From an uncultured Verrucomicrobiae bacterium (lineage in GTDB: Bacteria > Verrucomicrobiota > Verrucomicrobiia > Limisphaerales > Palsa-1400): a DNA stretch of 64,000 nucleotides. Location of the stretch: contig CAVXRD010000003.1 of the NCBI GenBank assembly GCA_963764165.1, forward strand, positions 704,001 to 768,000, in the 5' to 3' direction. The first letter of the stretch is position 1, and each line of letters opens with the position of its first letter. The notes beneath the pieces were generated by a model. It had not been told where the DNA came from and did no database searches. It saw only the letters and a list, made by a program, of their open reading frames with translations. The translations under genes were made by a program, and so were the position numbers. Below are positions 15,077-49,061 of this stretch, one piece after another.

Positions 15077-16741
15077 TTATCCAACAACCTCCTGCTGGCG
15101 ATCATCTTCAAAGAGCGGGATCTCGTCGGTTTCGGCGATCTTGCCATAGTCCAATTTGACCAGCCGATCCGCCATGTAGAAATAACGGTCGTCATGCGTG
15201 ATCACCAGCACCGTCTTGCCGCGAGCCTTCAGGTCGGGCAGCAATTTCGTGTAGAACACTTTCTTGAAAATCGGATCCTGGTCGGAGGCCCACTCGTCAA
15301 ACAGGTAGAACGGGCGGTCCTCCAGATAAGCCGTGAGCAACGCCAGGCGTTTGCGCTGGCCGGTGGAGACCGACGTCGTGGAAAGCTTGCCGTTAGTCAC
15401 GCGAATCTTGTGCTTGAGGTGCAGTTGCTCGAGATAACCGCCTGCCCGCGCGTCAATGTCTTTGTCATCGATGCCAAGCAGGTTATCGAAGACAAAGAAG
15501 TCCGAAAACACCGCCGAGAACAACTGGCGGTAAGAGTCACGCGTTTTGTTGGTGACGGCTTTTCCGTCCAGACGAATTTCGCCCCCTTCCGGCAGGTAAA
15601 GGCCGGTGATGATTTTGGCGAGGGTGGATTTTCCGCTGCCGTTGCCACCCACCAGGAACACCAATTCGCCGCGGTTGAAGGCCAGGTCAATCGGCCCCAG
15701 GGTAAAGCTCGTGTCCTCCATTTCGCGATGATAGGTGTGGCTCACATTGCACAGCTCGATGCGCTCAAAGGATTGCTCATTCGCCGGCTTGTCGACTGGG
15801 CATTCTTCAGTGGAGCGCTCAGAAAGGGAAACGCCCAATTCCTGCACCTTTTGCAGTGCCACTTTGGCGCGGCCAAACAGCGAGATGCTGCTCAAGACCG
15901 CCGCCAGCGGCCCCATCATAAACAGCGTCGTCACGACATATCCCGTCATCGTCGCAGTGCTGATGGTCGACATATGAGGCGCCATAAACAAAATCAGCCC
16001 TATCAAGGCGAAGTAAAGCAGGTGGCTCCAGCTCTGCGCCGCCGCGAAGCGAACTTCCGCCGCGACATTGTGCTTTTGAAACGACGTGGTCACATTCTCG
16101 ACGTTGCGGGTCAGAAAGGCGCCCCGGCGGTCGCGGTGCAGTTTCAATTCCTTGATGCCATCGGTGAGCGCGCGGAAGTAGCCGAACAAACGGTCTTCAT
16201 CTTCCCGCGCTGCGCGGCAGTAGCGCAACGCGCTGGATACCACGACGAGATACCCCCCGGCGCCCAGCGCGATGACAACCATGATCGATGCCAGCATTTG
16301 CCACGACAGCCATCCAAGGTATATCGCGCCGCCCGCCAGGATGGCGATGTTTACCGATAAGATCGGCACCGCGAGCAAGGCCTGGGTGATGTTTAGAACG
16401 TCATCGGTCAATGCCGCCAGAATGCGGTGCGTGCCGAGATTCTCCAAATCGCGCAGCGGCACGGCAAGAATTTTTTTCACCAGGTCACGCCGCAATTCGG
16501 CGACGGCGCGCTGCGAGAATCCAGCCAGCACGGCTTGCGACAGGAACAGCGAGACAACTTTGCCAATGCCCAATCCGACGAAAGCCCAAATCAGCCCCCT
16601 GCTCGCAGAACCCGCATTGTTCATGGCCTTCGTAATCAGGGCCATCAGGCCGGCGTTGCAAACGCCGCTCAAGGCCGCCATCCCGATGGTAGCGAAGACA
16701 AGCCCGCGACAAGTGCGGAGGATGAATTTTAATAGCGTCAT
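15077..16741 (-). CDS. Cyclic-peptide export ABC transporter (SyrD/PvdE/YojI family)
   Basis: TM domain plus GGNGSGKST, STGQRKRLAL, LFDEWASDQDP, DGIKELKL; ATGA overlap with the NRPS stop. Confidence 0.95.
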   Translation of the reverse strand: MTLLKFILRTCRGLVFATIGMAALSGVCNAGLMALITKAMNNAGSASRGLIWAFVGLGIGKVVSLFLSQAVLAGFSQRAVAELRRDLVKKILAVPLRDLENLGTHRILAALTDDVLNITQALLAVPILSVNIAILAGGAIYLGWLSWQMLASIMVVIALGAGGYLVVVSSALRYCRAAREDEDRLFGYFRALTDGIKELKLHRDRRGAFLTRNVENVTTSFQKHNVAAEVRFAAAQSWSHLLYFALIGLILFMAPHMSTISTATMTGYVVTTLFMMGPLAAVLSSISLFGRAKVALQKVQELGVSLSERSTEECPVDKPANEQSFERIELCNVSHTYHREMEDTSFTLGPIDLAFNRGELVFLVGGNGSGKSTLAKIITGLYLPEGGEIRLDGKAVTNKTRDSYRQLFSAVFSDFFVFDNLLGIDDKDIDARAGGYLEQLHLKHKIRVTNGKLSTTSVSTGQRKRLALLTAYLEDRPFYLFDEWASDQDPIFKKVFYTKLLPDLKARGKTVLVITHDDRYFYMADRLVKLDYGKIAETDEIPLFEDDRQQEVVG

Positions 16742-19700
16742 GTTGATAATAATGCCGGCTGGTTTTCTGCGGTGGTGGTTTTTTGAGTTTCCTTAAGGGC
16801 TGCCGTCAAATCCGCGGCCAGGGTCTTGACGTTGGGCTCCATAAAGATGTTTTCGTGCGAACCAGGAATGAGTCTGACACTGACTTCTCCCGTGGTGAGC
16901 TTGCCCCAGCTCAAATCATGCGCAAACGAGCAGAGCATCGGATGCCCGCGCGTGCGGAACAGCGCAAGATTCCCCGTGCAGGGCTGCTGCACGTGGCGGT
17001 GAAGGGCTTGCAAATGCTTTCGCCAGAGCTTGAGTTCGTTTTCCGGGAAAAGCGCCGGGTCGATGATTTCCTCCAGGTCGACCGGGGCCTCGCCCTGCTT
17101 TCTCTTGATCCGCTTGGCTATTTTGCGGCCAATCGAGCGAATCTTTCTCCCGACAAAACGCCAGCGGTCGCGGGCCGGAACCTGCTTGAAATCTTCCAGC
17201 CAGTAATAGGTGTTGCGGGCGAACAGGAAGAAGAATTGCGGCTTCCACCATTCCACGGATTCGTAACCGACATTGACCGGCGCGGCATCCAGCAGGGCCA
17301 TCAGCGCAACCTGCGCGCCTTCGGCTTGGAGCTGGCGACCCATCTCGTAGGCCACGTTGCCGCCGAAACAATAGCCTCCGATGTAATACGGCCCCTCCGG
17401 CTGCTGGGCGCGAATGGCCTGCACGTAATACGCGGCCATCTCTTCGATGGTGTCGAATTCCTCCAGGCCAATTTGCCCGCGGGAACGCAGCGCAAAGATC
17501 GGCTGGTCGCGATCCATATGCACCAGCAAATTGGCGTAGCCCCATAGCACATCGCCGCCCGCGCCGTGGACCAGGAACAGCGGCGGCTTGCTGCCATTGG
17601 GCTGAATGGGAATGACCACTGAGTGCGATACGGCGGATTTTGCCTTGGAAAGAACCGCCGCCAATTGGCCGATCGTCGGCGCCTGAAACAAAGTGACAAG
17701 CGGCAGCTTCTGGCCGGTCATCTTTTCGACTTGGGCGAACAGTCGAACCGCGAGAAGCGAATGCCCGCCGAGTTCAAAGAAATCGTCCGCGGTCCCGACG
17801 CGCTCGACGCGCAGGAGCTTCTGCCACAACTCGCAAAGCTCGCGCTCAATTTGCGACTGCGGCGCAACGTAACGGCCGCCCGCCCCCGGACGCAACGCCA
17901 GGCGCGCTTCGATTTTTTGGTGAATTTTCGCGGCGTCGTTCAGTTCGGCGGCAATGGCGCGGCACTTGGTGAATTTCTTCACCGCGCCCGGCGCCGGAGT
18001 GGATTTGCCTTCGGTTGACGCCGGAGCAACGGGCGATTCGCTGCGCGGGGTAAATTCGACTTTGGCCGCAAATTCCGGCGGGAATTGATATTGGCCGCCT
18101 TGCTGGAATTGCGTCCCGATGCTCTCCAGAAAATCCAGCGCGGGCTTGTTCCGCGGCAGCCGCTCGAACGGGACATTCACCCATTTGGAATGGTGCTGCG
18201 CCGCCGCTTTGCCGAGGGCCTGAAGCATGCGATGCTCCACGCCGCGGCCCAGCGCGCGGCAACTCAGGAGGAATGAATCCACCACCAGCGCCTGGCCGCT
18301 AAAACTAAAAATCATCGCTCCGACCAGGCCGTAATCGCCGAAGCGATCCTTCACGGAAACGGTCCAGATTTCGGAGACTCCCGCCAACTGCTTCACTTCG
18401 CTCTCGGTGCGCCGCTTGCCGTTGACGTTGAATTGATTGGTGCGCTGCGTCAATTGTGACACGCGCGCAAGCTGCGCGGGCGCGGCCGGCGCAATGTCCA
18501 CCTGCAATTCCAGCTTGGCTATGAAATCCGCGAAGTTCGTCGATTGCGACTGCAGCTGCTCGCGCAATTGATTTTGCTGATACATCGCGGCGCGGCCCTT
18601 GTCCTCCGCCGTCGTCTTAAGCTGATCGAACGCCCAGCAGTGATCGAGAAATTGCGGGATGGCTGAAACATCTTCGGGCAACTGCAGAGCGAGAACTTCC
18701 GGGCTGTTGCCTTCCACTTCCGCGCATTCGACGGGGTTGTCGTCGATCAGCACAAAGCTATCGAGCCCAAGTTTCAATTCCTGCGCAATGGATTTGATGT
18801 TTTCTGATTTCGATTTCCAATTCACCCGCCACGCGGAAATGTGCTCGCGCAAAATCGGCATGGCGGGCCCTTTTGCGAACACCGCTTCCACGTCCGCTTC
18901 ATCGTTCTTGCTGCAAATCACGAGCAATTTGCCCGCCTCGCGCTGGCGCAGGACAAAATTTTGCAGGGCCACGCGCCCGGCTTCCAAACGAATCCCATTC
19001 GGTCCATCTTCGCCGCAAACGCCCGACCAGAGCGTATTGTCGCAATCCAGCGCGATGACTTTGCACGGAGGACGGCGCAGGGCATGAAATTTCCGGGCCA
19101 GCATGGTGGCCAGCGAGGTAAAGAACAGGGGCGTGTAGGGAATCCGGCCGAGCTCGTCGCCCGCGGGATCATCATAATCCGCCACCGGATACTTCTGTGA
19201 AAGCTCGGCGCTTGTCACGACATGGACGCCGTCAATCCCATGGAGCGTCACGGTGAGCGCCGTTTCTAGATCCTTCAGGGCTTCAGCCTTGGCTGGCTCC
19301 GCCAGCGCCATGCGCGAAGGCGGGCAGAAACAGACCAGCATCGACGCGCCGCCGCGGGCGGCTGCGCTTTGCACCGCGCTGACAAACTCGTCGGCGTGAT
19401 GTTTGATGGCTTGCCCAAATGTCAGCGCGCCGGACGCCCCTGTGTTTGACTCCCAATCATTCAAGCGAATCAGCAAAACATTCAGGCCATTGCGATTGGT
19501 GGCGAGATCGCTTTGGGAATCCAGCAATTGCTGGAAGACCTGATCGTAGGGCGCAAACTTGATCCGGGCGGAAATTTCCAATTCATCCAGCCAGAAGCGC
19601 AGCGGCTCCTCAATCGGCTCTGCCGTGAACGTTCCGCAAATCGCGATGGTTTCGGGCTGCGCGCGCTTGGGGGCTTTCAGTTCCACATCGGCAATCACCG

Positions 19701-22700
19701 TCCGCGGCGCTTCCGCCAGCATTTGCAAAACGGATTGGAAGGAGGCCAGCAATTGCTCAATCGATTTTTGATGGAACAAGCCCGCCTTGTATTCGCACGT
19801 CAGAGCAAGGCCGGCCGGCATTTCGTTGGCTTCAAAGCGGAGGTCGAGCAGCGCGGCTTCGGTGTTGACAACAATGGGAGCGCTCGTGATTCCCTCGCCG
19901 AATTGCGGCAGGTCCGGCGTGTTTTGGTAGAGCAGCGCCACATTGTAAAGCGGATTGCAGCCCGGGCGGCGCTCCACTTTGGCTGATTCCACTATTTTCT
20001 CGAACGGACAATCCTGATGCGATTGGCTTTCGATAATCTCCGCCTTCACCGCCCGCAGCGTTTCGAAGCCCGCCGCCGCGCCGGAAATTTTGAAGCGCAA
20101 TGGCAGGAAGTTCATGAAACAGCCAATGAGACCCTCAATCTCGCGGCGATTGCGGCCAGCCACCACGGTGCCGAGAACCATGTCCGTTTGGCCCGTCCAT
20201 TTGTGCAGGGTAATCGCCAGGGCGGCCATCAGCACCATGAACGGTGTTCCGCCTTCGCGCTGGCTCAATTTCACAATTTCCGCGCTCAACGCCTGCGGCA
20301 GCTCCACCGCAATCCGGCCGACCTTGGCTTCGGTCTGTTCCGCATTATCCGAGTCGGTGGGAAGTTCGACTGCGACAGGCGCGCCCGCCAATTTCTGCCG
20401 CCAATACGCCAGCTCCCTTTGCTCGGTGGCGCCTTGCAGCCAGCGGCGCTGCCATTGGGCGAAGTCCGCGTATTGCACGGGCAGCGGCGCAAAGTTGGGC
20501 GCGCTATTTCCCGAAACGATGGCGCGGTAGCTCGTTTCCAGCTCCCGGAAAAATACGTCCAGCGACCAGCCATCCGACACCGCGTGGTGCATCACAATGA
20601 GCAAAGCGTGATCGGTCGCGCTCATGCGGGCCAGCCTGGCGCGGATCAACGGGCCCCGCTCAAGATCAAATGAGCGATGCGCTTCGGCTTGCAAAACTCC
20701 GGCCAATTTCGATTCGTCGGCACCCGGAATCTCCGTCACCCACACTTGCACGCTCAATGACGGCGCAATTTTCTCCGACAGAACCCCATCAACAAAATGG
20801 AGGGTCGTGCGAAGCGCTTCGTGGCGGTCAATAATCAAATCGAGGGATTTCTGAAGGGCGGCCACATCGAGCGCGCACTTGATGCGGATCGCGGTCGGAA
20901 CGTTGTAAGCGTCGCTCTTCGGCTCAAGCTGGTTCAAAAACCACAGTTGATCCTGCATGAAGGAAGCGGGCAAGACGCCTTCGCGCGAAATCGGCTCCAG
21001 CGCTGGAACCGGCGCATTCGAATGATTCCAGCGCCCCGAATCCACTCCCGCCGCCAGGGCCTCGACCGTCGGCGCATCAAACAAGCAGGACAGCGGCAAT
21101 TCGATGCCGAGGCTTTCGCGCAGGCGCGAGATGACCTGTATGGCGGTCAGCGAATGGCCGCCTAATTCAAAGAAATGATCCGTCGCACCGATATCCTTGA
21201 TCCCCAATACTTCGCTCCAGGCTGCGGCAACCTTCTTTTCGGCATCCGTGCGCGGCGCGATCAATCCCGTGCGGGCTTCGCTCTGCCCAGCCTGCGGGGC
21301 AGGCAGCGCGCGGCGATCCACCTTGCCATTCGGCGTCAGCGGCAATTTTGGCAGGAACACGAATTGCGCGGGGGTCATGAACTCGGGCAAACGCTCCCGC
21401 GTGCAGCGGCGCAAATCATCGACCGAGGCCGTTTTCCCCGCGTTGAACACGACATAGGCCGCCAGATATTTTTCGCCGGGCCGGTCTTCACGCGCGATGA
21501 CCACCACTTCCGCCACCGCCGGATTGGCCTTGAGAGCGATTTCGATTTCGCCCAATTCAATGCGGAAACCGCGAATTTTGACTTGATGGTCGGAGCGGCC
21601 GAGATACGTCAGATTCCCGTCTTCGCGCCAGCGGGCGACGTCACCAGTTTTGTAGATGCGCGAACCCTGCTTGTAAGGGTGCGGCAGAAAACGCTCGGCG
21701 GTGAGGTCGGGGCGGTTCAAATAACCGCGCGCCACTTTATCACCGCCGATATAAAGATCGCCCGTCATGCCCACCGGCAGGGGCTGCATTTGTTTGTCAA
21801 GAATATAGACTTGCTCGTTGGCCAGCGGACGGCCGATGGTCGCCGGTTCGCCTGTTTTGCGCAGGGCGCCCGTCGAATAGGTGGTCGTTTCGGTCGGGCC
21901 GTAAAGATCGTAAACCTTCTTCGCTGACGTCTTGGAATAAATTTGCTCCACCAGCGCGGTGGCCAGCGGCTCGCCCGCAAGATTGACAACTTTGACTGAA
22001 CTGGGCACGCCGTTGATGCGGAGCAATTCGCGCATGGCCGATGGCACGGTGTTGACCAGAGTGACTTCCGAAGCGGCAGGCAGGCCCGGCAGAGCAAGCG
22101 CGTTGTCGGCCAGGATAATTTTTCCGCCCCAGCAGAGCGGAACGAACATTTCGTAAACGGAAAGATCAAAACACATCGAGGTCGACGCGAGCATTCCCGC
22201 GTACTCCTCGGGCAGAAACGCATCCTTCGCCCAGCAGACCATGGCCACGGCGTTGCGATTTTCCAGGGCGACGCCTTTCGGCTGTCCGGTCGAGCCGGAG
22301 GTGTAGAGCACGTAAGCCAAATCGTTTGGCCCGGCTTGATTCAAAGGAGCTGTCTTGTCGGAGATTGGCTGGATGTTCTCGACGAGCAGCACCTGGGTTT
22401 TCGAGGCGGGAATCAATTCGCGGAAACGCTCGCGTGTCAGCAACACGCGCAATCCAGCATCCTGCGCGATGGCCGCCAGGCGCGCCTTCGGATAAGTGGG
22501 ATCCAGAGGGACATAAGCTCCGCCCGCTTGAAGTGTTCCGAGAATCCCGGCCACCATATCCTCGGAGCGCTCGAGGCAGATGCCCACCAAAGATTGGTTG
22601 CCCACCCCTAAAGCTTGCAAACTCTTCGCAATGGTTGCGGCGCGCTCGTAAAGCTCGCGATACGTGAATCGCTTTGTCCCCACCACGAGCGCCTCCGCAG

Positions 22701-25700
22701 TGGGCGTCCGCGCGGCCTGTTCATTGAACAATTGGGCGAGCGTCTTTTCGCGCGGGTATTCCAGTTGCGTGCGATTCCATTCATTCAGAATCGTCTCCGA
22801 TTCCGCCGGGGTCAAAATAGACAGCTTGGACAGGGGCTGTTCCGGCGCCGCGACCAGAGACTGCAGAGCGGTTTCCACATGCCCCAGCATCCGTTGCGCC
22901 GTGGCGCGATTGAACAAATCCGTTGCGTATTCCAATCGGAAAACCGGCCCCAGTTCGTTGTCAAGAAGGCAGAAACGCAGGTCGTATCCCTCCACGATGG
23001 ATGGCGCCTCGGTCGCGAAAAAGACCTGCGCAATCGGGTGATATGAAGAATCCGCCGATGGGCAAATTTGCGCGATGACGTCCTTGAACGGGATTTGCGA
23101 ATGCTGGACGGCGGCAGTTTTGGCGGTGCGAACGCGGTCGAGCAAATCACGGCCCGTCATTTCCGCGGCCATGCGAGTGCGGACCACGGCAATGTTGGCT
23201 TTATGGTCACTGCCCGTTTGCAAGCCAACCGGCAGATCGTCCTGCCCGGAATACCGGTTTAAAACGACATCGAGGGCGGCCAGCGCCAAGGCGGCCCGGT
23301 CGCCGGTTTCCATTTTTGACGCCAGCGAGCGCGGCAAAGGCCGGGTTTCTGTGGCCACCGCTTTGGATAATACCGCTGGACGAGTGCGGTCGGTGGGCAA
23401 TTCCAAAAGTGCGGGTGCGCCCGCCAGCTCACGCTTCCAGAAATCCATATCGAGTTCCCTGCTTTGCTCCAGAACTTTCTTCAGTTCGGCTGCTGTTTCA
23501 TCCACCCAGGGCTCCTCCAAAACCTTCTCATGGGCGCCCTGGACGATGGTGATATTGACTCCGCGGCGGGCGAAATCGCCCCAGCCGTAATCCTGCTCGA
23601 AAGAGCACCATAACGGGTGGCCCGGGCTGCGGAACAGGTGAACACGGCCTTCGTATGGTTTTGGATGAAACTTTCGCAAGGCCAGAATATGGCTTTGCCA
23701 CAATGCGCGCTGGTCAGCCGGAATGGTGGCAAGGTCAACCAGATTTTCCGCGTCATTGGCGGCCGAGCCATTGCCGCCGCCGCCAAGCAAACGGGAAAGC
23801 TTTTGTTTGACACGGCGCGTTTTCCAGAGAATGAAATCGTGGCGCTGGGCCGGGGTCCATTGCCGGCAGTAATCGGCCCAGTAAACCAGATTTTTGGCGA
23901 ACCGCAGCCCCCACGCAGGGGTATAACTGAATTGGGTGTAGCTCGAGTTCGGCGGAGCGCAATTGAGCAGCGCCAGCAAGGCGACTTTTTCGCCCTGCGC
24001 CTCGATTTGCCGCGCCATTTCAAAGGCCACGTTTCCACCGAAACAATATCCGCCGAGATAGTAGGGGCCGTGCGGCTGGATGCGGCGCATATCCTTGACA
24101 TATTGCGCGGCCATTTCCTCCATGGTGTCGAATTCCTGGTGGCCGTTCAGCCCGCGGGAACTCAATCCGTAGACAGGCTGGTCCGCGCCAAGCCGGCGGG
24201 CAAGATTCACGTAGCCCCAGAACATTCCGCCACCCGCTCCGTGGACGAGAAATAACGGAGGCTGTGTTCCCTTGGGCTGCAACTCGACAACAGACGTTCC
24301 GGCGGTGGCGCTTTCGTCGCGAATCTCGTCACGCACCACCACTGCCAGCTTCTCCACGGTCGCCGCGGTAAAGATCGCCGCGAGCGGCAGTTTTTTCCCG
24401 AAGGCCTTCTCAATGCGCGCGGAAACTTTGACGGCCAGCAGCGAATGGCCGCCCAGATCGAAAAAATTATCCTCGATGCCAACGGGTTCGACGCCCAGCA
24501 CGCTTTCCCAAATGCGGCACAGCTCCAATTCGACAGCGTCCCTCGGTGATGCGTATTTGCGCGTCAATGTGGGACGGGCGTGGTCCGGCTCCGGCAGGGC
24601 GCGGCGATCCACTTTCCCGTTGTGTGTCAGCGGAAGGGATTCGATTTGCACGAACGCCGAAGGAATCATGTATTCCGGAAGATGTTCGCCAAGAATGGCG
24701 CGCAACTGATTCGGCTTGGGCGCGAGTTTTCCATCCGGGACATAGTAGGCCACCAGGCGGGTCTGGCCGGCTCCGGAGCCGCAGACTTTGACCGCGCATT
24801 CGCGCACGCCAGGGCAGCGTCCCATCACGGCTTCGATTTCGCCCAACTCGATGCGATAACCGCGCAGCTTTACCTGGTTATCGATGCGGCCCAAATACTC
24901 GACGTTCCCATCCGGGAGCCAGCGGGCGAGGTCCCCGGTGCGATAGAGGCAGACACAGGGGCTGTCTGCGCTAAATTGATGAAGAACAAATTTCTCAGCG
25001 GTGAGCTCCGGACGATTCCAGTAGCCCTTGGCCAACCCGTCGCCACCGGTATACAACTCGCCCGGAACGCCAATTGGGACCGGATTGCGATTCGCGTCAA
25101 GTATATAAACCTGGGTATTCGAGAGCGGCTTGCCAATCGGCACGTTCGTCGCATTTTCTGGAATGTCGCGCAGGAGAGCGCAACAGGTGAATGTCGTGTT
25201 CTCGGTCGGGCCGTAACCATTGACGAGGCGGTGCGGCGGGCGGTCTTTGAGCACCGCGCGCACCCATCGCGCATCCAGCGCTTCGCCGCCGGCCATCACG
25301 GTCCGCATGGTGGCAAACGCGCCGGGAACCTCCGAGGCCACCTGGCTGAACAATGCCGAGGTCAGGAACATCGCGGTGATGCCCTGCTCGCGCAATTCCG
25401 CCGCAAAATCCTTCGGCGAGAGCGCAATGTCCGTTGCGATGCCGCGCAATTGCCCGCCGTTGAGCAGCGAGCCCCAAATTTCAAACGTCGCCGCGTCGAA
25501 AGACATGTTCGACACTTGGGCGATGCGGTCGGTCGCATCCAGCTGGATATAGTTCGTCTTGAAAACCAAACGATTCACGCCGAGATGCGGCACGGCCACG
25601 CCCTTGGGCTGGCCTGTCGAGCCGGAGGTGTAAATGATATAGGCGGTGTCCGTCGGCTTGGTGCGATTTGGAAGATTCTCGGCGCTCTCGCGCTGGATTT

Positions 25701-27555
25701 CGTCCGCATCGGCATCGAGGCAAATCGCGCGCAGGCCGCGATGCGGCAAGTGCCGCAGCAAGCTTTGCTGTGTCAATAATACACCGGTTCGCGTGTCGCT
25801 GAGCATGAAGGCCAGGCGTTCCTTCGGATAACGCGTGTCCATCGGAACATACGCCCCGCCCGCTTTCAAAATCGCCAGCAGCCCGATGATCATGCTGGGC
25901 GAGCGCTCCATGCAAATGGCGATGGGCGCGGCTGGGTCAAATTTCTGCCGCGCGATGACGCGGGCAAGCCGATTGGCGCTTTCGTTCAATTCGCCATACG
26001 TCATCGTCTCCCGGCCGAACACCAGCGCCACCGCGGCCGGCGTCGCCCGGGCCTGCGCCTCGAACAATTCGTGAATGCATTGCTGGCGCGGATAATCGGT
26101 CGCGTTGTCGTTCCATTCCACCAGCACGCGGCGGCGTTCGGCTTCGCCCAAAATCGGCAAATCCGAAAGGCGGCGCACCGGTTCGATCACCACGCTGCGA
26201 AGCAGATTCTCGTAATGCTCCAGCAGCCGTTCCATGGTCCCCTGCTCGAAAAGGTCGCAATCGTATTCCACCAAAGCCACCATTGAGCTGCCAAAATCCT
26301 GCACCACAAACGTCAAATCGAATTTCGCCGTCCCCGTATCGGTCTCGACGTGCTCCACCTGCAATCCCGGCAGCGTCATCGCGCCGTTGTTGACAGTCTT
26401 GGCCTGCAGCGCGAACATCAGCCGCGTGAAGGCCAGATGCGCCAGCGAGCGTTCCGGGCGAAGCGATTCCACGACGCGTTCAAAGGGCAAATCCTGATGC
26501 GCGTAAGCGCCGAGGGCCGCAGCCCGCACGCGCTGGAGCAATTCATCAAAGGTCGGGTTGCCCGCGAGGTTGGCGCGGAGCAAAAGCGTATTGACAAAGA
26601 ATCCGATGAGCCCCTCGGTTTCAAGGCTGTTGCGCCCCGACACCGGCGTTCCAACCACGACGTCCTCAAGGCTTGTGTAACGATGCACCAGCGCCTGGAA
26701 CGCGGCCATCAACACCATGAAAAGCGAGGACTGCCGTTCCGCGGACAATTGTTTCAAACGCGGGCCGAGGTCCGGGCTTAACCGGCGCGTCACCGTCCGT
26801 CCCCGAAAAGCCGGAGTGCGCTCGCGCGGCTTGTCAGTCATCAATTCCGTGATCGGCGGAGAGCCGGCCAGTTGCGTTTTCCAATATTGGAGCTGGTCCT
26901 GAACGGACTCGCCGCTGAGCTTCTGCTTTTGCCAGTCGGCGTAGTCGGAGTATTGAATCGGCAGCTCGGGCAATTGCGCTTTGCGGTTTTCGATTTGCGC
27001 TTTGTAAAATTCTTCCAGCTCGCGAAACAGCACATTCAGCGACCACTCGTCGGAGGCGATGTGATGCAGATTCAGCACCAGCATGTGATCGTTGGAGGCA
27101 AGGCGCACCAATGACGCCCGCAGCAGCGACTCCGTGCTGGCCAGATTGAACGGGCGGCGGACTTCTTCGCGGATCCATTTGTCCGCCTCCGCCGCATTGG
27201 GCATGTCCACGACGCGCAGCGCGAAATCGAATTGGTTCGAAATCACCTGCACCGGCGTTTCCGCCGAGCAAACGAAACGGGTGCGCAGCGTCTCGTGGCG
27301 CTTGATGATGTTCCTCAAGGACTGATCGAGAGCGATTACGTCCAGCGAGCCTGTCAGGCGCAGGACGGACGGAACATTGTAAAGGGGGCTGTTCGGATGC
27401 AGTTGATCCAAAAACCACAACCGCTGCTGGGCGAAGGAAAGCGGGCTTTGGTTTTCGCGGCGCGAGGCCTGCCGCAAGCGCTCGGCCAATCTGGCTCTTT
27501 TCTCTTCCGCGGTCTGTGCGGGCGCTGGTTCTACTGGGGAGGTAGAGGTAGTCAT
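16738..27555 (-). CDS. NRPS 3: C-A(Val/Ile)-T-TE(Cys)-partial C-A(Ala)-T-C-FkbH-T-TE(Cys)
   Basis: C motifs HHIASDE and HHAVSDG; two YTSGSTGQPKGV A domains; three GGHSL carriers; two GYCFG thioesterases; FkbH motifs LDCDNTLW, DDNPVE, QRTNQFN, LSCR; 3605 aa. Confidence 0.95.
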   Translation of the reverse strand: MTTSTSPVEPAPAQTAEEKRARLAERLRQASRRENQSPLSFAQQRLWFLDQLHPNSPLYNVPSVLRLTGSLDVIALDQSLRNIIKRHETLRTRFVCSAETPVQVISNQFDFALRVVDMPNAAEADKWIREEVRRPFNLASTESLLRASLVRLASNDHMLVLNLHHIASDEWSLNVLFRELEEFYKAQIENRKAQLPELPIQYSDYADWQKQKLSGESVQDQLQYWKTQLAGSPPITELMTDKPRERTPAFRGRTVTRRLSPDLGPRLKQLSAERQSSLFMVLMAAFQALVHRYTSLEDVVVGTPVSGRNSLETEGLIGFFVNTLLLRANLAGNPTFDELLQRVRAAALGAYAHQDLPFERVVESLRPERSLAHLAFTRLMFALQAKTVNNGAMTLPGLQVEHVETDTGTAKFDLTFVVQDFGSSMVALVEYDCDLFEQGTMERLLEHYENLLRSVVIEPVRRLSDLPILGEAERRRVLVEWNDNATDYPRQQCIHELFEAQARATPAAVALVFGRETMTYGELNESANRLARVIARQKFDPAAPIAICMERSPSMIIGLLAILKAGGAYVPMDTRYPKERLAFMLSDTRTGVLLTQQSLLRHLPHRGLRAICLDADADEIQRESAENLPNRTKPTDTAYIIYTSGSTGQPKGVAVPHLGVNRLVFKTNYIQLDATDRIAQVSNMSFDAATFEIWGSLLNGGQLRGIATDIALSPKDFAAELREQGITAMFLTSALFSQVASEVPGAFATMRTVMAGGEALDARWVRAVLKDRPPHRLVNGYGPTENTTFTCCALLRDIPENATNVPIGKPLSNTQVYILDANRNPVPIGVPGELYTGGDGLAKGYWNRPELTAEKFVLHQFSADSPCVCLYRTGDLARWLPDGNVEYLGRIDNQVKLRGYRIELGEIEAVMGRCPGVRECAVKVCGSGAGQTRLVAYYVPDGKLAPKPNQLRAILGEHLPEYMIPSAFVQIESLPLTHNGKVDRRALPEPDHARPTLTRKYASPRDAVELELCRIWESVLGVEPVGIEDNFFDLGGHSLLAVKVSARIEKAFGKKLPLAAIFTAATVEKLAVVVRDEIRDESATAGTSVVELQPKGTQPPLFLVHGAGGGMFWGYVNLARRLGADQPVYGLSSRGLNGHQEFDTMEEMAAQYVKDMRRIQPHGPYYLGGYCFGGNVAFEMARQIEAQGEKVALLALLNCAPPNSSYTQFSYTPAWGLRFAKNLVYWADYCRQWTPAQRHDFILWKTRRVKQKLSRLLGGGGNGSAANDAENLVDLATIPADQRALWQSHILALRKFHPKPYEGRVHLFRSPGHPLWCSFEQDYGWGDFARRGVNITIVQGAHEKVLEEPWVDETAAELKKVLEQSRELDMDFWKRELAGAPALLELPTDRTRPAVLSKAVATETRPLPRSLASKMETGDRAALALAALDVVLNRYSGQDDLPVGLQTGSDHKANIAVVRTRMAAEMTGRDLLDRVRTAKTAAVQHSQIPFKDVIAQICPSADSSYHPIAQVFFATEAPSIVEGYDLRFCLLDNELGPVFRLEYATDLFNRATAQRMLGHVETALQSLVAAPEQPLSKLSILTPAESETILNEWNRTQLEYPREKTLAQLFNEQAARTPTAEALVVGTKRFTYRELYERAATIAKSLQALGVGNQSLVGICLERSEDMVAGILGTLQAGGAYVPLDPTYPKARLAAIAQDAGLRVLLTRERFRELIPASKTQVLLVENIQPISDKTAPLNQAGPNDLAYVLYTSGSTGQPKGVALENRNAVAMVCWAKDAFLPEEYAGMLASTSMCFDLSVYEMFVPLCWGGKIILADNALALPGLPAASEVTLVNTVPSAMRELLRINGVPSSVKVVNLAGEPLATALVEQIYSKTSAKKVYDLYGPTETTTYSTGALRKTGEPATIGRPLANEQVYILDKQMQPLPVGMTGDLYIGGDKVARGYLNRPDLTAERFLPHPYKQGSRIYKTGDVARWREDGNLTYLGRSDHQVKIRGFRIELGEIEIALKANPAVAEVVVIAREDRPGEKYLAAYVVFNAGKTASVDDLRRCTRERLPEFMTPAQFVFLPKLPLTPNGKVDRRALPAPQAGQSEARTGLIAPRTDAEKKVAAAWSEVLGIKDIGATDHFFELGGHSLTAIQVISRLRESLGIELPLSCLFDAPTVEALAAGVDSGRWNHSNAPVPALEPISREGVLPASFMQDQLWFLNQLEPKSDAYNVPTAIRIKCALDVAALQKSLDLIIDRHEALRTTLHFVDGVLSEKIAPSLSVQVWVTEIPGADESKLAGVLQAEAHRSFDLERGPLIRARLARMSATDHALLIVMHHAVSDGWSLDVFFRELETSYRAIVSGNSAPNFAPLPVQYADFAQWQRRWLQGATEQRELAYWRQKLAGAPVAVELPTDSDNAEQTEAKVGRIAVELPQALSAEIVKLSQREGGTPFMVLMAALAITLHKWTGQTDMVLGTVVAGRNRREIEGLIGCFMNFLPLRFKISGAAAGFETLRAVKAEIIESQSHQDCPFEKIVESAKVERRPGCNPLYNVALLYQNTPDLPQFGEGITSAPIVVNTEAALLDLRFEANEMPAGLALTCEYKAGLFHQKSIEQLLASFQSVLQMLAEAPRTVIADVELKAPKRAQPETIAICGTFTAEPIEEPLRFWLDELEISARIKFAPYDQVFQQLLDSQSDLATNRNGLNVLLIRLNDWESNTGASGALTFGQAIKHHADEFVSAVQSAAARGGASMLVCFCPPSRMALAEPAKAEALKDLETALTVTLHGIDGVHVVTSAELSQKYPVADYDDPAGDELGRIPYTPLFFTSLATMLARKFHALRRPPCKVIALDCDNTLWSGVCGEDGPNGIRLEAGRVALQNFVLRQREAGKLLVICSKNDEADVEAVFAKGPAMPILREHISAWRVNWKSKSENIKSIAQELKLGLDSFVLIDDNPVECAEVEGNSPEVLALQLPEDVSAIPQFLDHCWAFDQLKTTAEDKGRAAMYQQNQLREQLQSQSTNFADFIAKLELQVDIAPAAPAQLARVSQLTQRTNQFNVNGKRRTESEVKQLAGVSEIWTVSVKDRFGDYGLVGAMIFSFSGQALVVDSFLLSCRALGRGVEHRMLQALGKAAAQHHSKWVNVPFERLPRNKPALDFLESIGTQFQQGGQYQFPPEFAAKVEFTPRSESPVAPASTEGKSTPAPGAVKKFTKCRAIAAELNDAAKIHQKIEARLALRPGAGGRYVAPQSQIERELCELWQKLLRVERVGTADDFFELGGHSLLAVRLFAQVEKMTGQKLPLVTLFQAPTIGQLAAVLSKAKSAVSHSVVIPIQPNGSKPPLFLVHGAGGDVLWGYANLLVHMDRDQPIFALRSRGQIGLEEFDTIEEMAAYYVQAIRAQQPEGPYYIGGYCFGGNVAYEMGRQLQAEGAQVALMALLDAAPVNVGYESVEWWKPQFFFLFARNTYYWLEDFKQVPARDRWRFVGRKIRSIGRKIAKRIKRKQGEAPVDLEEIIDPALFPENELKLWRKHLQALHRHVQQPCTGNLALFRTRGHPMLCSFAHDLSWGKLTTGEVSVRLIPGSHENIFMEPNVKTLAADLTAALKETQKTTTAENQPALLST

Positions 27556-30500
27556 TTGAGTTCCTTCTCATCCAATTCCAACAGCAACTCTTCAACTTCA
27601 CTGTCGGAAAGCTCGTCGATGCGATCCAAAAGACGCTGGGCTCGCGACGTTTCATTTCGGCGGAGTTCAATGCCAGGCTGCGAGGCAGTTTGCCGTTCCG
27701 CGGACACGACTTCGCGGGCCATTCCCGCGACGGTGGGCGATTCAAAAATGACGCGCACCGGCAATTCGATCTGCAATGCCTTGGCGATGCGGGACACAAT
27801 CTGCGTCGCCAGCAGGGAATGTCCGCCGAGGTGGAAAAAATTGTCGTTGATGCCGATCCGGTCCCGTCCGAGGATTTCACGCCAGATGTCCGCGAGCAAA
27901 ATCTCGGTCGGATTCCGCGGCGCTTCGCAGGCCTCGGCTTCCGCTTTTGCGAGTTCCTCGGGAGCGGGCAGCGCGCGGCGATCCACTTTTCCGTTGGGCG
28001 TCAGCGGCAGCTTGTCCATCGGCACGATATGCGACGGGACCATGTAGGATGGCAGCTTGATCGAAAGAAATTCGCGCAACTGAAGGCTGGCAGGCGACGT
28101 GTCCGCGCGCAGCACGACATAAGCGACCAACTGTTTCGTGCCCGAATGATCTTCCCGCGCCACCACCAGCGCCTCACGCACCGATTCATGGGTCATCAAG
28201 GCGGCCTCGATCTCACCCGGCTCAACCCGGAAGCCGCGAATCTTCACTTGTTCATCTTTGCGCCCGATGAATTCGACATTTCCATCTGGGAGCCAGCGCG
28301 CCAAGTCGCCGGTTCTATAGAGATGCTCCGGGCCGAACGGATTGTGGACAAATTTTGAATCCGTAAGTTCCGGACGATTCACATAACCGCGCGCGACGCC
28401 ATCTCCGCCGATGTAAATTTCCCCGATCGCGCCCTGGGCCACGGGCCTCATGGCAGCGTCCAAAATATAAATTTGCGTGTTCGCGATTGGCCGCCCAATC
28501 GGCACTGAGGCGCGGCCAGCCCAATTTTTTGGCACGCGATAGCAGCAGGTAAATGTCGTGTTTTCGGTCGGGCCGTAACCATTGATAAATTGCGTGTTCT
28601 TCAATTCCCGCACGGCCTTGAGCACATGCGGAACGGATAGCGCCTCGCCTCCGGCCAGCAGGAAACGCAGGCCCTGCAAGCTGGCCAATTGGTTGTCAAT
28701 CATTTGATTGAACCAGCCGGAGGTCAGCCAGAGGGTCGTGATTTTATGCCGCTGCACGAAATGGCCCAATTCCTCCAAGGACGGCATTTGCGGCGGATGC
28801 AAAACCAGTTTCGCGCCGTTGGCCAGGGCGCCCCAAATCTCAAAGGTCGACGCGTCGAACGAAAGAGTCGCCAATTGCAGAAAAACATCGTTTGGGCTGA
28901 ATTCGACAAAGTCCGTATTCCGCACCAAGCGCCCTATTCCGCGATGTGTCACGGCAACCCCCTTCGGCCGGCCAGTCGAGCCGGAGGTATACATGATGTA
29001 GGCCATATCCGTCGCTTTGGGCGCGCGGACTGGGCTGTTGCGGAGACGGCCGCCACCGACCGGCCAATTTGGATTGTCGAGGCAAAGAATCTGTTCGCCA
29101 GGGGCTGGAATGGCGCCACGGTAGCGTTCGCGGGTTACGACAAGGCTGGCCTTCGAGTCTTCCAGCATCATCGCATTGCGGGAAGCTGGATTGGCGGGAT
29201 CGAGCGGAAGATAAACCGCGCCCGTTTTCAAAATCGCGATGAGCGCCACAATCATGTCAAGCGAACGCTCGACGCAAAGGCCGATCACCGTCTCCACCCC
29301 TGCCCCGGCTTCGGTGAGTTTCGCCGCGACCAGGTTGGCGCGATGATTCAACTCGCCATAGGCGATTTCGCCATCTTCGCAGACCAGCGCAATGGCCGCC
29401 GGATTTTTGGCAACCTGCTTCTCGAAAAGCTCATGCGCGCAGGCGTCACGCTCGTATTCGTTCGCCGCACCCAACCCAAGCTTCATCGATTTCTCGCGCT
29501 CCGTGTCGGTTTCCAATTCAAATTCCGAAATGCGCAGCGCGGAATTCGCGAGAATATTTTCAACGAGAACGCGGTATTGCTTCGCCCAGCGCTCAATCGA
29601 GGGCGCGTCATACAAATCCGTGCTGTATTCGATGCGAATATCGAGATGGCGCCTCCCTTCCGTGACCAGCAGCGTGAAATCGAATTTCGCGGCGCCGCTC
29701 TCGAGTTCGACCCGACTGGCGTTCAAGCCAGGGATCGTCCAGCCGTCCGAAAAATCCCGCTGCAAGCCAAAAGCCACCTGGAAGAGCGAATTGGCGGCCA
29801 AATTCCGTTCACCGCCGAGGGCGCGGACGAGATAATGCAGCGGCGGTTGCTGCCCCGCGCCAGCGCTCATCGACGTCTCGCGAACGCGCTTGAGCAGCTC
29901 CGCAAAGGTGGGATTGCCAGCCAGACCGATCCGCAGGGCGCGAGTATTGACAAAGAAACCGATCAGGTTTTCGGTTTCCAATTCGTCGCGTCCCGAGAAG
30001 GGGGAACCAATCACCAAATCTTCCTGCAAAGTGGCGCGTTGAAGCAAAATGGCAAAGGCTGAAAGCAACACCTGGTAGACTGTCGAACCTTCTTTGCGCG
30101 CGAAATCCTTCAGTTTCGCCGCGAGCGGCTCGGGCCAGTTTGCGAACAGCGCCGTCCCGCGATGGCTCGTCATTGCCGGGCGCGGACGGTCTCCCGGAAA
30201 ACTGGTGAGCGGCGGTGCGCCGGCGAGCTGCTTCTTCCAAAATTCCACGCCTTCCCGCATCTGATCGCTCTGGGACATTTCGCGCTGCCACAGCGCGAAA
30301 TTGCCGTATTGAATCGGGAGTTCGGGAAGATCTGACTCACGGCCAGCGTCAAAGGTTTTATAAAGCGCCGCGAGTTCACGAAGGAAAACGCCCACCGACC
30401 ATGCATCGGAAATGATGTGATGCATGTTGATGGCGAGAAGATTCTTCCGGTCACTGACACGGAAAAGGCTCACGCGCATCAGCGGCTCTTGGGTCAAGTC

Positions 30501-30848
30501 GAAGGATTTTCTGGCATCCGCCCCGGCGAGACGGACCGCCTCGGCCTCACCGCTGGCCTGTAGCCGAAGATCGGTAACGGACAGCGGAAAAGGCTTGGGC
30601 GGAAAAACGATCTGGCAGGGCTTGCCATCCTTGGAACCGAGCGCGGTGCGCAAACTTTCGTGGCGGCGCACGATTTCGTTCACGGCATATTGCAGCGCGG
30701 ATAGGTTCAGGGCGCCATCGAGCCACCACGCCTCGGCGATATTGTAGGTTGCCGTGTTGGGCGTGGCTTGCTCAAAAAACCAGAGTCCCTCTTGTGGCCA
30801 TGACAGGGGGAGCACGCCTGCCATATTTTGAACCGATTGGTCCTGCAC
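27552..30848 (-). CDS. NRPS 2: C-A(Val)-T with acidic C-terminal docking helix
   Basis: HHIISDA, YTSGSTGRPKGV, code read as DAFWLGGTFK, GGHSL, tail IDELSDSEVEELL. Confidence 0.95.
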   Translation of the reverse strand: MQDQSVQNMAGVLPLSWPQEGLWFFEQATPNTATYNIAEAWWLDGALNLSALQYAVNEIVRRHESLRTALGSKDGKPCQIVFPPKPFPLSVTDLRLQASGEAEAVRLAGADARKSFDLTQEPLMRVSLFRVSDRKNLLAINMHHIISDAWSVGVFLRELAALYKTFDAGRESDLPELPIQYGNFALWQREMSQSDQMREGVEFWKKQLAGAPPLTSFPGDRPRPAMTSHRGTALFANWPEPLAAKLKDFARKEGSTVYQVLLSAFAILLQRATLQEDLVIGSPFSGRDELETENLIGFFVNTRALRIGLAGNPTFAELLKRVRETSMSAGAGQQPPLHYLVRALGGERNLAANSLFQVAFGLQRDFSDGWTIPGLNASRVELESGAAKFDFTLLVTEGRRHLDIRIEYSTDLYDAPSIERWAKQYRVLVENILANSALRISEFELETDTEREKSMKLGLGAANEYERDACAHELFEKQVAKNPAAIALVCEDGEIAYGELNHRANLVAAKLTEAGAGVETVIGLCVERSLDMIVALIAILKTGAVYLPLDPANPASRNAMMLEDSKASLVVTRERYRGAIPAPGEQILCLDNPNWPVGGGRLRNSPVRAPKATDMAYIMYTSGSTGRPKGVAVTHRGIGRLVRNTDFVEFSPNDVFLQLATLSFDASTFEIWGALANGAKLVLHPPQMPSLEELGHFVQRHKITTLWLTSGWFNQMIDNQLASLQGLRFLLAGGEALSVPHVLKAVRELKNTQFINGYGPTENTTFTCCYRVPKNWAGRASVPIGRPIANTQIYILDAAMRPVAQGAIGEIYIGGDGVARGYVNRPELTDSKFVHNPFGPEHLYRTGDLARWLPDGNVEFIGRKDEQVKIRGFRVEPGEIEAALMTHESVREALVVAREDHSGTKQLVAYVVLRADTSPASLQLREFLSIKLPSYMVPSHIVPMDKLPLTPNGKVDRRALPAPEELAKAEAEACEAPRNPTEILLADIWREILGRDRIGINDNFFHLGGHSLLATQIVSRIAKALQIELPVRVIFESPTVAGMAREVVSAERQTASQPGIELRRNETSRAQRLLDRIDELSDSEVEELLLELDEKELK

Positions 30849-30922: not shown

Positions 30923-33900
30923 TTAAACACCCGCTTTGACCACGCGGGCGCGGCGATTTGTGATTGTGGGACGCGGCGTCGAAGCCGCTTTCGCACCCTG
31001 CATCAATCCCGCCAGCGATGCCACGGTGGGATTCTCGAAAATCGCACGCAACGGCAGATCCAAGCCGAACCGGCGATTAATCCGGGCGAACGCCCGCGTG
31101 GCCGAAAGGGAGTCCGCGCCCAATTCAAAGAAATCGTCCTCGATGCTGATTTGGCGGAGAGTAAGAACTTCCTCCCAAACTTCCACCAGCGCCTTTTCCT
31201 GTTCGTTGCGCGGGCCGACGTAATTTCGCGGTGAAGCGCTCGTTTCCTCGGGTGTGGGAAGTCGGTTCACATCGATTTTGCCATTCGGTGTGAGCGGAAA
31301 TTCCTTCAACGCGACGAAGTGCGCGGGAACCATGTAGCCAGGCAGTTTCGCGCGGAGGAATTCACGCAATTCCGCCGATTCCGGCGCGCCGTTGCGTGTC
31401 GTAAGGTAAGCCACTAACCGCTTCTCACCGGCGCCGATTTCGCGGGCGGTGACGACGGCATTGGTGATCTCCTCGTGCTGGCGGAGGATCGTTTCGATTT
31501 CGCCCAGTTCGATGCGGAACCCGCGAATTTTCACCTGTTGATCGGCGCGGCCAAGGCACTCGACAGTGCCATCCGGCAGATAACGCGCGAGGTCGCCCGT
31601 TTTGTAAATGCGGCTCTTGCCATCGTTGCGGAACGGATCAGCGATGAATTTATCAGCCGTCAATTCAGGCCGGCCAAGATAACCGCGCGCAAGGCCGTCG
31701 CCACCGATGTGCAATTCGCCCGCCACGCCGACAGGTACGGGTTGGAGTTGATGATCGAGAATGTACAACTGCGTGTTGGCAAGCGGACGGCCGATCAAAA
31801 TCGGGCTCTTCGGCTCTACTTTCCAAGCTGTCGACCAGATCGTCGTTTCCGTCGGGCCGTAGAAATTCCATAAGCCCGCGACTTTTCCGGCGAGGCCGTC
31901 CGCCAGGGTGCGGGTGAGGGCCTCGCCGCCGCAGAGGACGCGAAGATCGCGTTTGCCAGCCCAACCGGATTCAATCAACAAGCGCCATGTTGTGGGTGTT
32001 GCCTGCATGACGGTGGCTTCGGAGGATTCGATCAACTCGGCCAGGCGAGGCCCGTCAGCCGTGACGGATTGCGGGGCCAGTGTCAATTGCGCGCCTGAAA
32101 TCAGCGGAAGGAAAATTTCAAGACCCGCAATGTCAAACGAAAGCGTGGTCACGCTGAGTAACTTGTCCGTTGCCTTGAAGCCGATGGTTTTGCCAGCCGA
32201 GAGGAGTAGATTCACCACCGCTTGATGACCCACTTGCACGCCTTTGGGCCTGCCAGTGGAACCGGAGGTATAAATTACGTAAGCAAGGCCGTCGGACTTC
32301 GAGGTCGAGGTGACGTTTTCGTCGGCGCGCCCGTAATCGAGCGAATCAACGGAAATCACGTCGCCATCCAAAATCGGAACTGATTGCAAGGCACTGTTCT
32401 CGGTGACGAGAACCGTCACCTTCGCATCGTCGAGCATGAAGGAGAGGCGGTCGCGGGGGAATGCAGGGTCAAGCGGTACGTAAGCCGCGCCAGCTTTCAG
32501 AATTCCCAGCAATCCGGCCACCATGTTCACGGAACGGTCGACACAAATGCCCACCAACGTGCCCGGGCCGACTTCCAGGCTCTTCAGTTTTGCGGCGACG
32601 TCGTAGGCGCGGCGGTTGAGATCGCGATACGTCAACTTTTCCCCACCCGCCACGACAGCGATTTGCGCAGGCACTTCGGCGGCTTTGCGCTCGAACAAAC
32701 TGTGAATCGTCTCGGTTTGCGGATAGGACTCCTCGGTTTTGTTCCATTCCACCGTCAACCGTTCCCGCTCAGCCGCAGGCATTGGCGAGAAGGTTTCGTA
32801 GCGGGCATTTGGATCCTGCGCCATCGCGCGAATAGTGCTGCCATAATAGGCTGACATTTCCTCAATTTGGCGGCGGCAAATTCGGTTCGGATCGTAATCA
32901 ATGTGGTATTCCAATTTCGTTCCCGTCGTGTCGAGAATGAACGACGTGAAGGCCGGGAGATCGTTCGCTTCAAAATAATAGCCGTCGCGCAAATCAATCC
33001 CGCCTTGGAGATCGTTGTAGACGTGGAATTGCACGAAATCGAAGGCGGATTCGAACACGGGACGCCCGCCGTTCAGTTTCGTGACTTCCGCCAGCGGGAA
33101 CCTGCGATAGGGGGCGATTTCGCGCTCCGCGGCAAAGCATTGCTTCACCAATTCGATCCACGTCCCGCCTTTGAGTGAGAAGCGCAGCGGCAGCGTGTTC
33201 AGGAACAGGCCGATCACTTTTTCGCCATCGACGACTTCCGGGCGGCCGTTGCACAGGAGGCCGCTCATGACTTCGTTCTGTCCGTAAATGAGGCTCACCA
33301 CGCGTTGATGCGCGGCGAGCAAAACTGTCTTGAGCGGCACGCCGGCACGGCGGGCCAGCTCTTTCAAGCCTTGCAGAACTTCAGCGTCAACAAACGTTTC
33401 CGGGCCGCGCTTTTGTTCGAGCCCGCCTTCGCACATGGATTTCGGCCAGCGCGGCATCGTTTGCAGATTCGCGCCCGCCAGTTTTCCGGTCCAAAATGCG
33501 CGCGTCTCGGCATCGGCGATCGTCTTCGCTTCGAGCGCGGCAAAATCGCGATAGGTGGTCTCCGGCGGCGCAATAACTTTGCCACCGCCGCTTCGCAGCG
33601 CCGCGTAGTCCTCCATGATTTCCGTCAAGACTGCGGCGAGGCTCCAGCCGTCCATGCAGGAATGATGGAAGCTGATGATGAACTGGAATGAATTTTCCGA
33701 CAGCCGCTGCGCGTGAAATCGGATGAGCGGCGCCGTCGTCCGGTCAAATGGCATCCGCTTTTCGTTCTCAATCCAATCGACGACAGATTTCTCCTGCTTG
33801 TCCGGCGCGAGGTCGCGCAGATCGTCCACCGTCAGGCGGAATCGCGCCTGGCGGTGCACCAATTGCAGCGGCTCGCTGTAACCAGCGATGTGGAATGAAG

Positions 33901-35935: not shown

Positions 35936-36074
35936 ATTAGAAATCAATGCTCCGCCAGAATAAGGCATTGAAAAGTCGATCAAATAGGGACTTGAACCCA
36001 ATTGGAATTGCCGAACGCCCGCATCCCGTTAGCTTTCCATTGCATCAAATGTGAAACCCCTCTAATCATTGCCA

Positions 36075-38772: not shown

Positions 38773-38966
38773 GGAAGTCATTGCACTTTGGGTGGAGCCC
38801 GGTAGAGTCGTTACCGGCTCAACGCAAAGAGGATGCGTAGCGAAAAACCAACGGGTGCGGGACTGTTTGGGTGCCCACCTGTGTCCGCGCGCGCCTGCAT
38901 CCTGTAGGAAAATCAAACTGTTAGAAAACCAGATCAACCATGCATTGGCACTTCTCAAAAACCACT

Positions 38967-41087: not shown

Positions 41088-41122
41088 GATGAAAGATTTC
41101 GGCTCGATCGGAACAAGCTCGC

Positions 41123-41162
41123 AAAAGGGGCCGGAGAACGGAAACGGTCGCGGCCCCTTTTT
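41123..41162 (+). terminator. Rho-independent terminator
   Basis: AAAAGGGGCCG..CGGCCCCTTTTT hairpin after the stop. Confidence 0.85.
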
Positions 41163-41275
41163 GTTTGACGATCCCGCCGGCGCAGGGTGGAGCATCGCAC
41201 CCAGGAGGGTTGAGCCTCCCAAGGGCGGGTCAAGGTGGGACAAAGATGATTATGATGGCGGGACAGGGCGCATCC

Positions 41276-46830: not shown

Positions 46831-46846
46831 AAGGCCAAGGGCGCCA

Positions 46847-48295: not shown

Positions 48296-49061
48296 ATTCT
48301 GTCGCCTCGACCTTTTTCCATTGCCAGCAGGAGAGCGCGCCGGCTTTTCCTGGAAAAGCCAGTGCGGCGAGATAACCCCGAGCGGGCTGCAAGACCCGCA
48401 AGTTCCATTGGCCGGCGGAAAATCCGGCCTCTTTCGGCAATTTTAGAAAACGCGCCTCGGCGTCTGTGTCGAAGGAAACTTCGACCTCGCGCAGCAAGTG
48501 TCCAATCCCCGCGCCGGTGGCCTTTAAGAGCGCCTCCTTGCGCGTCCAAATTCGGAAAAAGGCTGCGTCCTTTTCCGATTTTGGAACCGCTTTGAACTCC
48601 GCAAATTCACGAGGCGCGCAAAAGACCGCCGCCATTTCCTCCGCATCCTCGACGGGGCGCAGCCTCTCGATGTCAACGCCGAGAGGCCGATCGAATGTCA
48701 GCGCCAGCACAGCGGCGTCCTCGCAATGGGCCAAATTAAACTGCAATCCAGACGCGGCCAGCGTCGCATTTAACAAGGGCTTCCCGTTGGGACCTGTTGT
48801 CAACTGTATGGATTCGGGACCGGCCCCAAGGTAGCGCCCAAGAATGGTGCGCAAGGTCGCGCGCCCCGTGACGTAACGGCTGCGATCCCGGTCAAAACGA
48901 AATGCCGCGGCCCGCTTTTGCTCCTCCGGCGCCAGGACATCCCTTAAATGCGCCAGGGTGTCCTCCGTTTCGGTCAAGCAAAACGACCAAACATGCACGT
49001 CCTCCTGCCCGAGGAGAAAATCATGGGGCGGCGCTGGCCAGGAAAATTCCAAATCATCCAT
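48282..49061 (-). CDS. Sfp-type 4'-phosphopantetheinyl transferase
   Basis: GPNGKP, FNLAH, LGVDIE, FFRIWTRKEALLKATG. Confidence 0.95.
   Translation of the reverse strand: MDDLEFSWPAPPHDFLLGQEDVHVWSFCLTETEDTLAHLRDVLAPEEQKRAAAFRFDRDRSRYVTGRATLRTILGRYLGAGPESIQLTTGPNGKPLLNATLAASGLQFNLAHCEDAAVLALTFDRPLGVDIERLRPVEDAEEMAAVFCAPREFAEFKAVPKSEKDAAFFRIWTRKEALLKATGAGIGHLLREVEVSFDTDAEARFLKLPKEAGFSAGQWNLRVLQPARGYLAALAFPGKAGALSCWQWKKVEATEYEYS

Follow-up and report, generated by a model that had tools for sequence, protein, structure and literature searches.

What a thioesterase (TE) does in the interior of an NRPS, between a carrier and a truncated condensation (C) domain, is the question raised by the locus described here. 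The window, i.e. the whole stretch of 64 kb that was analysed, carries three NRPS genes, all on the minus strand, and an exporter gene that overlaps the stop of the third (Table 1). In NRPS 1, A1 has the code DVWNIAMVHK, nearest to Thr, and A2 the code DILQLGFIWK, which we take to be Gly-type; A3 is presumably Val-type, A4 Ile/Val-type and A5 Ala-type. The C domain of NRPS 1 (window 32750-34090, minus strand) is closest to the structures of McyA (E 2.7e-122) and AmbE (2e-64), whose C domains are dehydrating, and it directly follows the first A-T, no N-acylating or methylating domain being detected. The cyclic-peptide exporter is the commonest family neighbour (34 of the 97 stretches examined), and the PPTase of the window likely serves its NRPS. 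Two paralogous Ig/laminin-G/lectin proteins (715 and 1346 aa) are encoded at 38940-45536 on the plus strand, between the NRPS genes and a glycosyltransferase locus (45685-49061, minus strand) in which a WecG-STAS glycosyltransferase gene accompanies the PPTase gene about 10 kb upstream of the NRPS. A second FkbH-like gene, with 34% identity, lies elsewhere in the window's genome (C2:744852-745937).

Table 1. Features of the NRPS locus, with positions counted in the window
Feature	Position	Strand	Composition or basis
NRPS 1, start of line 1	30923..36001	-	A1-T-C(modAA-like)-A2-T
NRPS 2	27552..30848	-	C-A3-T; A3 code DAFWLGGTFK
NRPS 3, 3605 aa	16738..27555	-	C-A4-T4-TE1-halfC-A5-T5-C-FkbH-T6-TE2
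Module 4, last of line 1	24331..27456	-	C (HHIASDE), A4 (DAFFMGGTFK), T4
TE1, internal type I thioesterase	23479..24276	-	Cys1171, Asn1198, His1342
Half C, C-terminal lobe only	22786..23451	-	no HHxxxD, two internal deletions
A5 and T5, start of line 2	21046..22731	-	A5 code DLYNNALTYK; code and motif reading
C6, FkbH glyceryl-loading domain, T6	17650..20964	-	C6 HHAVSDG; FkbH TIGR01686, 304 bits (cut-off 147)
TE2, terminal TE1 paralogue	16801..17601	-	Cys3396, Asp3423, His3567
Cyclic-peptide export ABC transporter	15077..16741	-	TIGR01194, 519 bits; overlaps NRPS stop
4'-Phosphopantetheinyl transferase (PPTase)	48282..49061	-	homologues beside related clusters, 17/97 stretches

Each motif on which the first-pass annotation had based a full TE after T4 was recovered where it had been placed, namely LFLVHGAGG (24255-24229), GYCFG with the Cys (24043-24045) and GAHE with the His (23530-23532). 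The structural model of TE1 is that of a complete type I thioesterase (alpha/beta hydrolase fold), predicted with confidence, in which the nucleophile elbow follows beta5 and the His follows beta8. There is no triad Asp at position I, which is occupied, directly after model strand 98-104, by the Asn of LLNCAP (23962-23964); the reported exchange of Asn for the Asp of the terminal TE was therefore confirmed. What had been overlooked is that TE2 is also a Cys enzyme (GYCFG), 44% identical to TE1. Cys, Asn and His are present in 121/121 complete internal TEs, the mean identity of TE1 (0.64) is the same as that of TE2, and TE1 is under purifying selection with a dN/dS of about 0.08-0.13 (0.077-0.125, four unsaturated pairs), A domains being alike. 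The Asn does not mark internal TEs alone: 48/48 internal TEs have it, and so do 11 of 19 cluster-terminal TEs of the same clade, encoded directly before an exporter or a PPTase (the others have Asp in five cases, Glu in one and Ser in two). No residue could be shown to set the internal TEs apart from the terminal ones of the clade. Asn-type TEs also occur in stand-alone C-T-TE genes without an A domain (L074, L083-L086, L092, L096, L100-L103, L105, L107 and L110), which form one well-supported clade that includes TE-only genes (L087 and L112); most of their C domains that were read have HQxxFDG.

The proposed analogy with the TEs of ObiF and SulM is not supported, although part of the active site is alike. 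TE1 shares with them the Cys nucleophile and a position I without Asp (Gly1173 in ObiF1, 27 residues past the Cys, as is Asn1198 in TE1). However, the Asp of ObiF and SulM is described as having moved to 30 residues before the His (position II; PMC6668435, PMC11298585), whereas TE1 has Gly1312 at that site and the analogy breaks down. In Asn-type TEs, an acid is found in the position II column in 0/90 and within two columns either side in 2/90; at 1320 or 1322, 90/90 have an acid, but so do 27/27 Asp/Glu-type TEs. Asp1322 (QDYGW) was considered as a position II acid and rejected, because 90/122 internal TEs have it and it precedes the His by only 20 residues. Nor is the terminal beta-OH or beta-NH residue of the ObiF/SulM systems indicated by the A4 code DAFFMGGTFK, and aliphatic-type A codes, by our assumed assignment, precede the TE in nearly all best-match proteins. 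In one subclade of Asn-type TEs (L046, L048, L051, L071 and L058), Asp has been regained in four members, L058 being the one with Asn; a Thr-type A domain (DFWNIGMVH) precedes the TE in L048 and L058, which makes these two candidate beta-lactone formers.

Homologues keeping the TE-halfC junction, which the first-pass annotation had proposed to look for, were found in 4 of 40 related genomes from two genera, including the window's own, each with the same unbroken ORF (3567-3611 aa, 56-68% identity). The junction is thus not unique, and because it is found in the same frame in these four other genomes and in dozens of independently assembled proteins, it is real and not an artefact. An internal TE is present in 120/120 and FkbH in 116/120 of the best matches to the junction query, a set biased towards internal-TE proteins since it was picked by TE1 similarity. 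The 122 internal TEs of the best-match set are followed by a half C (60), by no C (54) or by a full C with its second His replaced (8), and HHxxxD was seen in none, so that the intact C domain that would have spoken against the first reading follows an internal Asn-clade TE in 0/122. Among fetched loci, 52 internal TEs are followed by a half C (14), none (33) or a full C (5), and a canonical C follows 0/52; among 50%-identity representatives it follows 0/24 internal Cys-Asn-His TEs, three tails matching no NRPS domain. These sets of 122, 52 and 24 overlap. A distant protein outside the Asn clade (P0239), in which an internal Cys-Asp TE precedes a canonical C, is a counter-example. Related TEs (E <= 1e-50) are found in 73/401 genomes of the order, the unpublished genome G328 being counted solely in this tally, and internal TEs are scattered in several clades among terminal ones in the TE tree.

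The half C itself displays FWKREL (from 23442), LELPTDRTRP and LEYATDLF (to 22912), and, when compared with the protein's own C4, matches nothing but the C-terminal lobe (residues 181-450 of the C4 query, 27% identity, E 2e-19). It has neither of the two marks of a catalytic condensation domain, two lobes and HHxxxDG, and no H-x4-D(G/E/A) motif was found between NRPS 3 residues 1340 and 1610. Segments of about 20 and about 10 residues found in full C domains, presumably the latch and the floor loop, are also missing. The description of a C-terminal half without HHxxxDG was thus accurate, but the picture of a chimeric fusion to TE1, with the TE in place of the N-lobe, was not. A tree of 104 sampled C-lobes shows several origins of half C domains, and the clade of the window's half C groups with full-length, His-less C domains located after the TE (FastTree support 0.99); the closest structures to one of these full His-less domains are elongating C domains. 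Judged from these relationships, the half C is what erosion has left of a full-length C without the second His, truncated repeatedly and absent altogether after almost half of the internal TEs, rather than a partner lobe of TE1; the TE did not displace an N-lobe, since catalysis was lost first and erosion came later. Its present role is probably that of a non-catalytic spacer or scaffold supporting A5. C domains that stay active after loss of the second His are described (PMC10510592), and some of the His-less full-length domains may therefore still be catalytic.

Two explanations had been offered for the internal TE, that it replaces condensation by transacylation or that one protein runs two assembly lines. 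The pair is the right one, but its members are not exclusive, and two lines in one protein are borne out by the relatives. A Gly-ketide-Pro-Val line ends in an Asn-clade TE with no line 2 in G152 and G197, and the same line has halfC-A(Ala)-T-C-FkbH appended to it in G174. Line 2 alone (A-T-C-FkbH-T-TE) is found in G181 and in G003, a genome that is 85% complete. In G094 the lines are adjacent and unfused, the first gene finishing with the TE and the second beginning with C{HQMAADA}-A(Ala)-T. Since TEs of the Asn clade are found at the end of complete single-line clusters too, and the Ala-FkbH line occurs alone, NRPS 3 is a fusion of two lines, each able to stand alone. Decaying modules were observed in several long variants (P0044, P0047, P0050, P0108, L052 and L148), either a basic-residue A without T or an Ala A with a scrambled code (NDFHTSLMCK), and show that line 2 can lose one or the other of its start modules.

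The reading that we favour, with a probability of roughly 0.55, is that TE1 acts as a coupling enzyme that transfers the line-1 tetrapeptide to line 2. Besides the absence of a canonical C after the internal TEs of the clade and the purifying selection on TE1, the evidence for it comes from C-less arrays, where a TE is the sole bond-forming neighbour of the A-T units, the amino acids being our assumed readings of the A codes. P0017, P0018 and L057 (three TEs) read C-A-T-TE-A(Pro)-T-TE-A(Arg)-T-TE, the C-less stretch of L057 lying at L057:3881-13861; L121 (G138) reads ...TE-A(Arg)-T-TE-A(Pro)-T and ends in A-T; P0125 reads C-A(Val)-T-TE-A(Ala)-T-TE; and P0118 and P0135 are also C-less. Hydrolysis in such A-T-TE arrays would be a futile ATP cycle yielding free amino acids only, so that the TE most likely transfers. 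In addition, 32 long variants have an A-T that comes after TE1 and before a C lacking the second His (replaced in 29/32, not read in three), and this A-T is intact, with the A10 Lys in 32/32 and the Ser in 32/32; flanked by a His-less C, it has TE1 as its sole catalytic neighbour. An apparently dead basic-residue A domain (3/32 in a first count) was an artefact of motif searching, the Lys being present in 32/32. A similar futility argument from the single-module line 1 of genus g79 was dropped, because its starter genes may sit on another contig (G083) and those genomes have other NRPS genes. More generally, it is tentatively suggested that the Cys-His-Asn TE clade might be a portable substitute for C domains, forming in-line amide bonds from peptidyl-T to aminoacyl-T and making C-less lines possible. 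The most suitable small examples for studying elongation by a TE are L057, L121 (G138), P0017, P0018 and P0125.

Coupling in the window could proceed as follows. Line 1 would make a product resembling X-Gly-Val-Ile, in which the modAA-like C would have dehydrated X. In the predicted product X bears no N-acyl group and would probably become a 2-oxo-acyl cap, with no nucleophile for self-cyclisation; a first residue that is dehydrated and unacylated would lose the amine of line 1, so that a nucleophile would have to come from line 2. Peptidyl-T4 would acylate Cys1171, and the likeliest acceptors are the amine of Ala-S-T5 or the glycerate hydroxyl. The amine, which would make TE1 a true condensation replacement, is proposed with reserve; the hydroxyl, which would give a branched product, appears less probable. 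C6 would then esterify Ala onto T6-bound glycerate, an FkbH domain being described in vioprolide as loading glycerate for an ester-forming C (PMC8949500), and TE2 would release the product for the ABC transporter to export as one conjugate.

The strongest alternative, which ranks below coupling and which we consider rather unlikely, is that the polypeptide holds two independent lines: TE1 would free the line-1 peptide by hydrolysis or onto a small diffusible nucleophile, A5 would restart, line 2 would yield Ala-glycerate, and the C after TE1 would have decayed because its donor was lost. It would be in accord with the TE clade closing complete single-line clusters before an exporter or a PPTase (19 loci) and with each line occurring without the other (G152 and G197; G181 and G003), findings that also count against coupling, as do the scattering of internal TEs among terminal ones, the failure to single out a residue peculiar to the internal TEs, and the described activity of some C domains that lack the second His. 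Each line exists alone with an exporter or PPTase (L123, L125, L151 and L037/L029), the two lines are unfused neighbours in G094, and Asn-type TEs are often terminal: in a set of 150 representatives, 38 were found at the end of their protein, some of them probably cut at contig ends. However, independent release is difficult to reconcile with the C-less A-T-TE arrays and with A-T units whose sole outlet is the upstream TE; the line 1 of the window would moreover lack a nucleophile of its own, and the join recurs in several separate clades.

An improbable explanation is that both Cys TEs acylate a common outside acceptor (a sugar, glycan or lipid carrier), one acyl per line or optional A-T, or else that TE1 shuttles its cargo from T4 to T5 in the manner of LgnA or CmaE, C6 then acylating glycerate twice. 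An outside acceptor would account for single lines, optional modules and the stand-alone TE and C-T-TE genes, and a WecG-STAS gene is near the NRPS start in 8/97 stretches and also in L122, L123, L125, L134 and L151; yet the constant neighbour is a cyclic-peptide exporter, the glycan locus of the window is about 10 kb away, none was seen upstream in L120, L130, L132, L133 and L147, and no acceptor was identified. For the shuttle variant, TE-fold transfer from T to T is described (PMC8748450). The WecG-STAS gene, often with a GT4 gene, adjoins the start of the NRPS cluster in several families (L037, L073, L089, L090, L122, L123, L125, L134 and L151). Finally, it is very improbable that a gene fusion left TE1 behind as an inactive relic (Asp to Asn), or that an assembly error produced the junction: TE1 lacks Asp at both published triad positions, but Cys, Asn and His are invariant in the complete internal TEs, dN/dS is near 0.1, ObiF is described as partly active without its Asp (PMC6668435, PMC11298585), and the junction recurs in independently assembled genomes and proteins.

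Coupling by TE1 has its closest parallels in FR900359 (FrsA and FrsG), salinamide (Sln9) and necroxime (NecA), in which transesterifying type I TEs are described as joining two NRPS lines and the FrsA and FrsG TEs as 42% identical (PMC7794379, PMC12979598). Here too there are two lines in one cluster, each with its own TE, the paralogous TEs are about 42-44% identical and one of them is the proposed conjugator. In the published accounts available, however, the donor module of FrsA, Sln9 or NecA forms a protein of its own and its acceptor is an already completed macrocycle, whereas in the window everything is on one polypeptide, the donor would be a tetrapeptide, the catalytic residues are Cys with Asn for Asp, and the acceptor is probably carrier-bound. 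The TE of AB3403 (PDB 4ZXH/4ZXI), among the top sequence and fold matches, is a GxCxG Cys TE with Asp at position I like TE2, whereas TE1 has Asn; it is terminal in a single module and described as uncharacterised. The TE_B of trans-AT PKSs (OocS, PDB 7R0X; 26% identity) is described as acylating in line (PMC7196800, PMC12979598), but in a PKS setting with an acyl-CoA donor, within a KS0-ACP-TE-KS0 cassette and not at the place of a C domain, whereas TE1 has the NRPS context T-TE-A. Lastly, the TE folds of Vlm2, CongE, LgnA and CmaE form bonds to, or shuttle cargo among, carrier-bound substrates: Vlm2 ligates and oligomerises by reverse transfer (PMC10510592), LgnA moves cargo between carriers (PMC8748450), and Cong-TE acylates an ACP-bound monomer. 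Also in favour of transfer, a C1146S change in ObiF is described as shifting the reaction to hydrolysis (PMC6668435, PMC11298585). As described, Vlm2 and CongE differ in being terminal and reusing the upstream carrier, LgnA and CmaE in being stand-alone and moving cargo without chain extension.

No description of this NRPS family was found in the literature searched, which was mainly non-subscription; the family is a conserved, uncharacterised variant of the two-line, TE-coupled NRPSs exemplified by FrsA and Sln9. It forms a graded series, from a His-less full C through a half C and no C to repeated A-T-TE units, and there is a fair chance that TE1 is a true condensation-domain substitute. Even if the lines were independent, there would be a widespread clade of Cys-TEs without the triad Asp, present in 73 of the 401 genomes of the order, and a class of glycerate-terminated products, neither of which was found in the literature searched. 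If TE1 does form the bond, it would be a case of a C domain naturally replaced within a canonical NRPS chain, and assembly-line engineering would gain a candidate peptide ligase.
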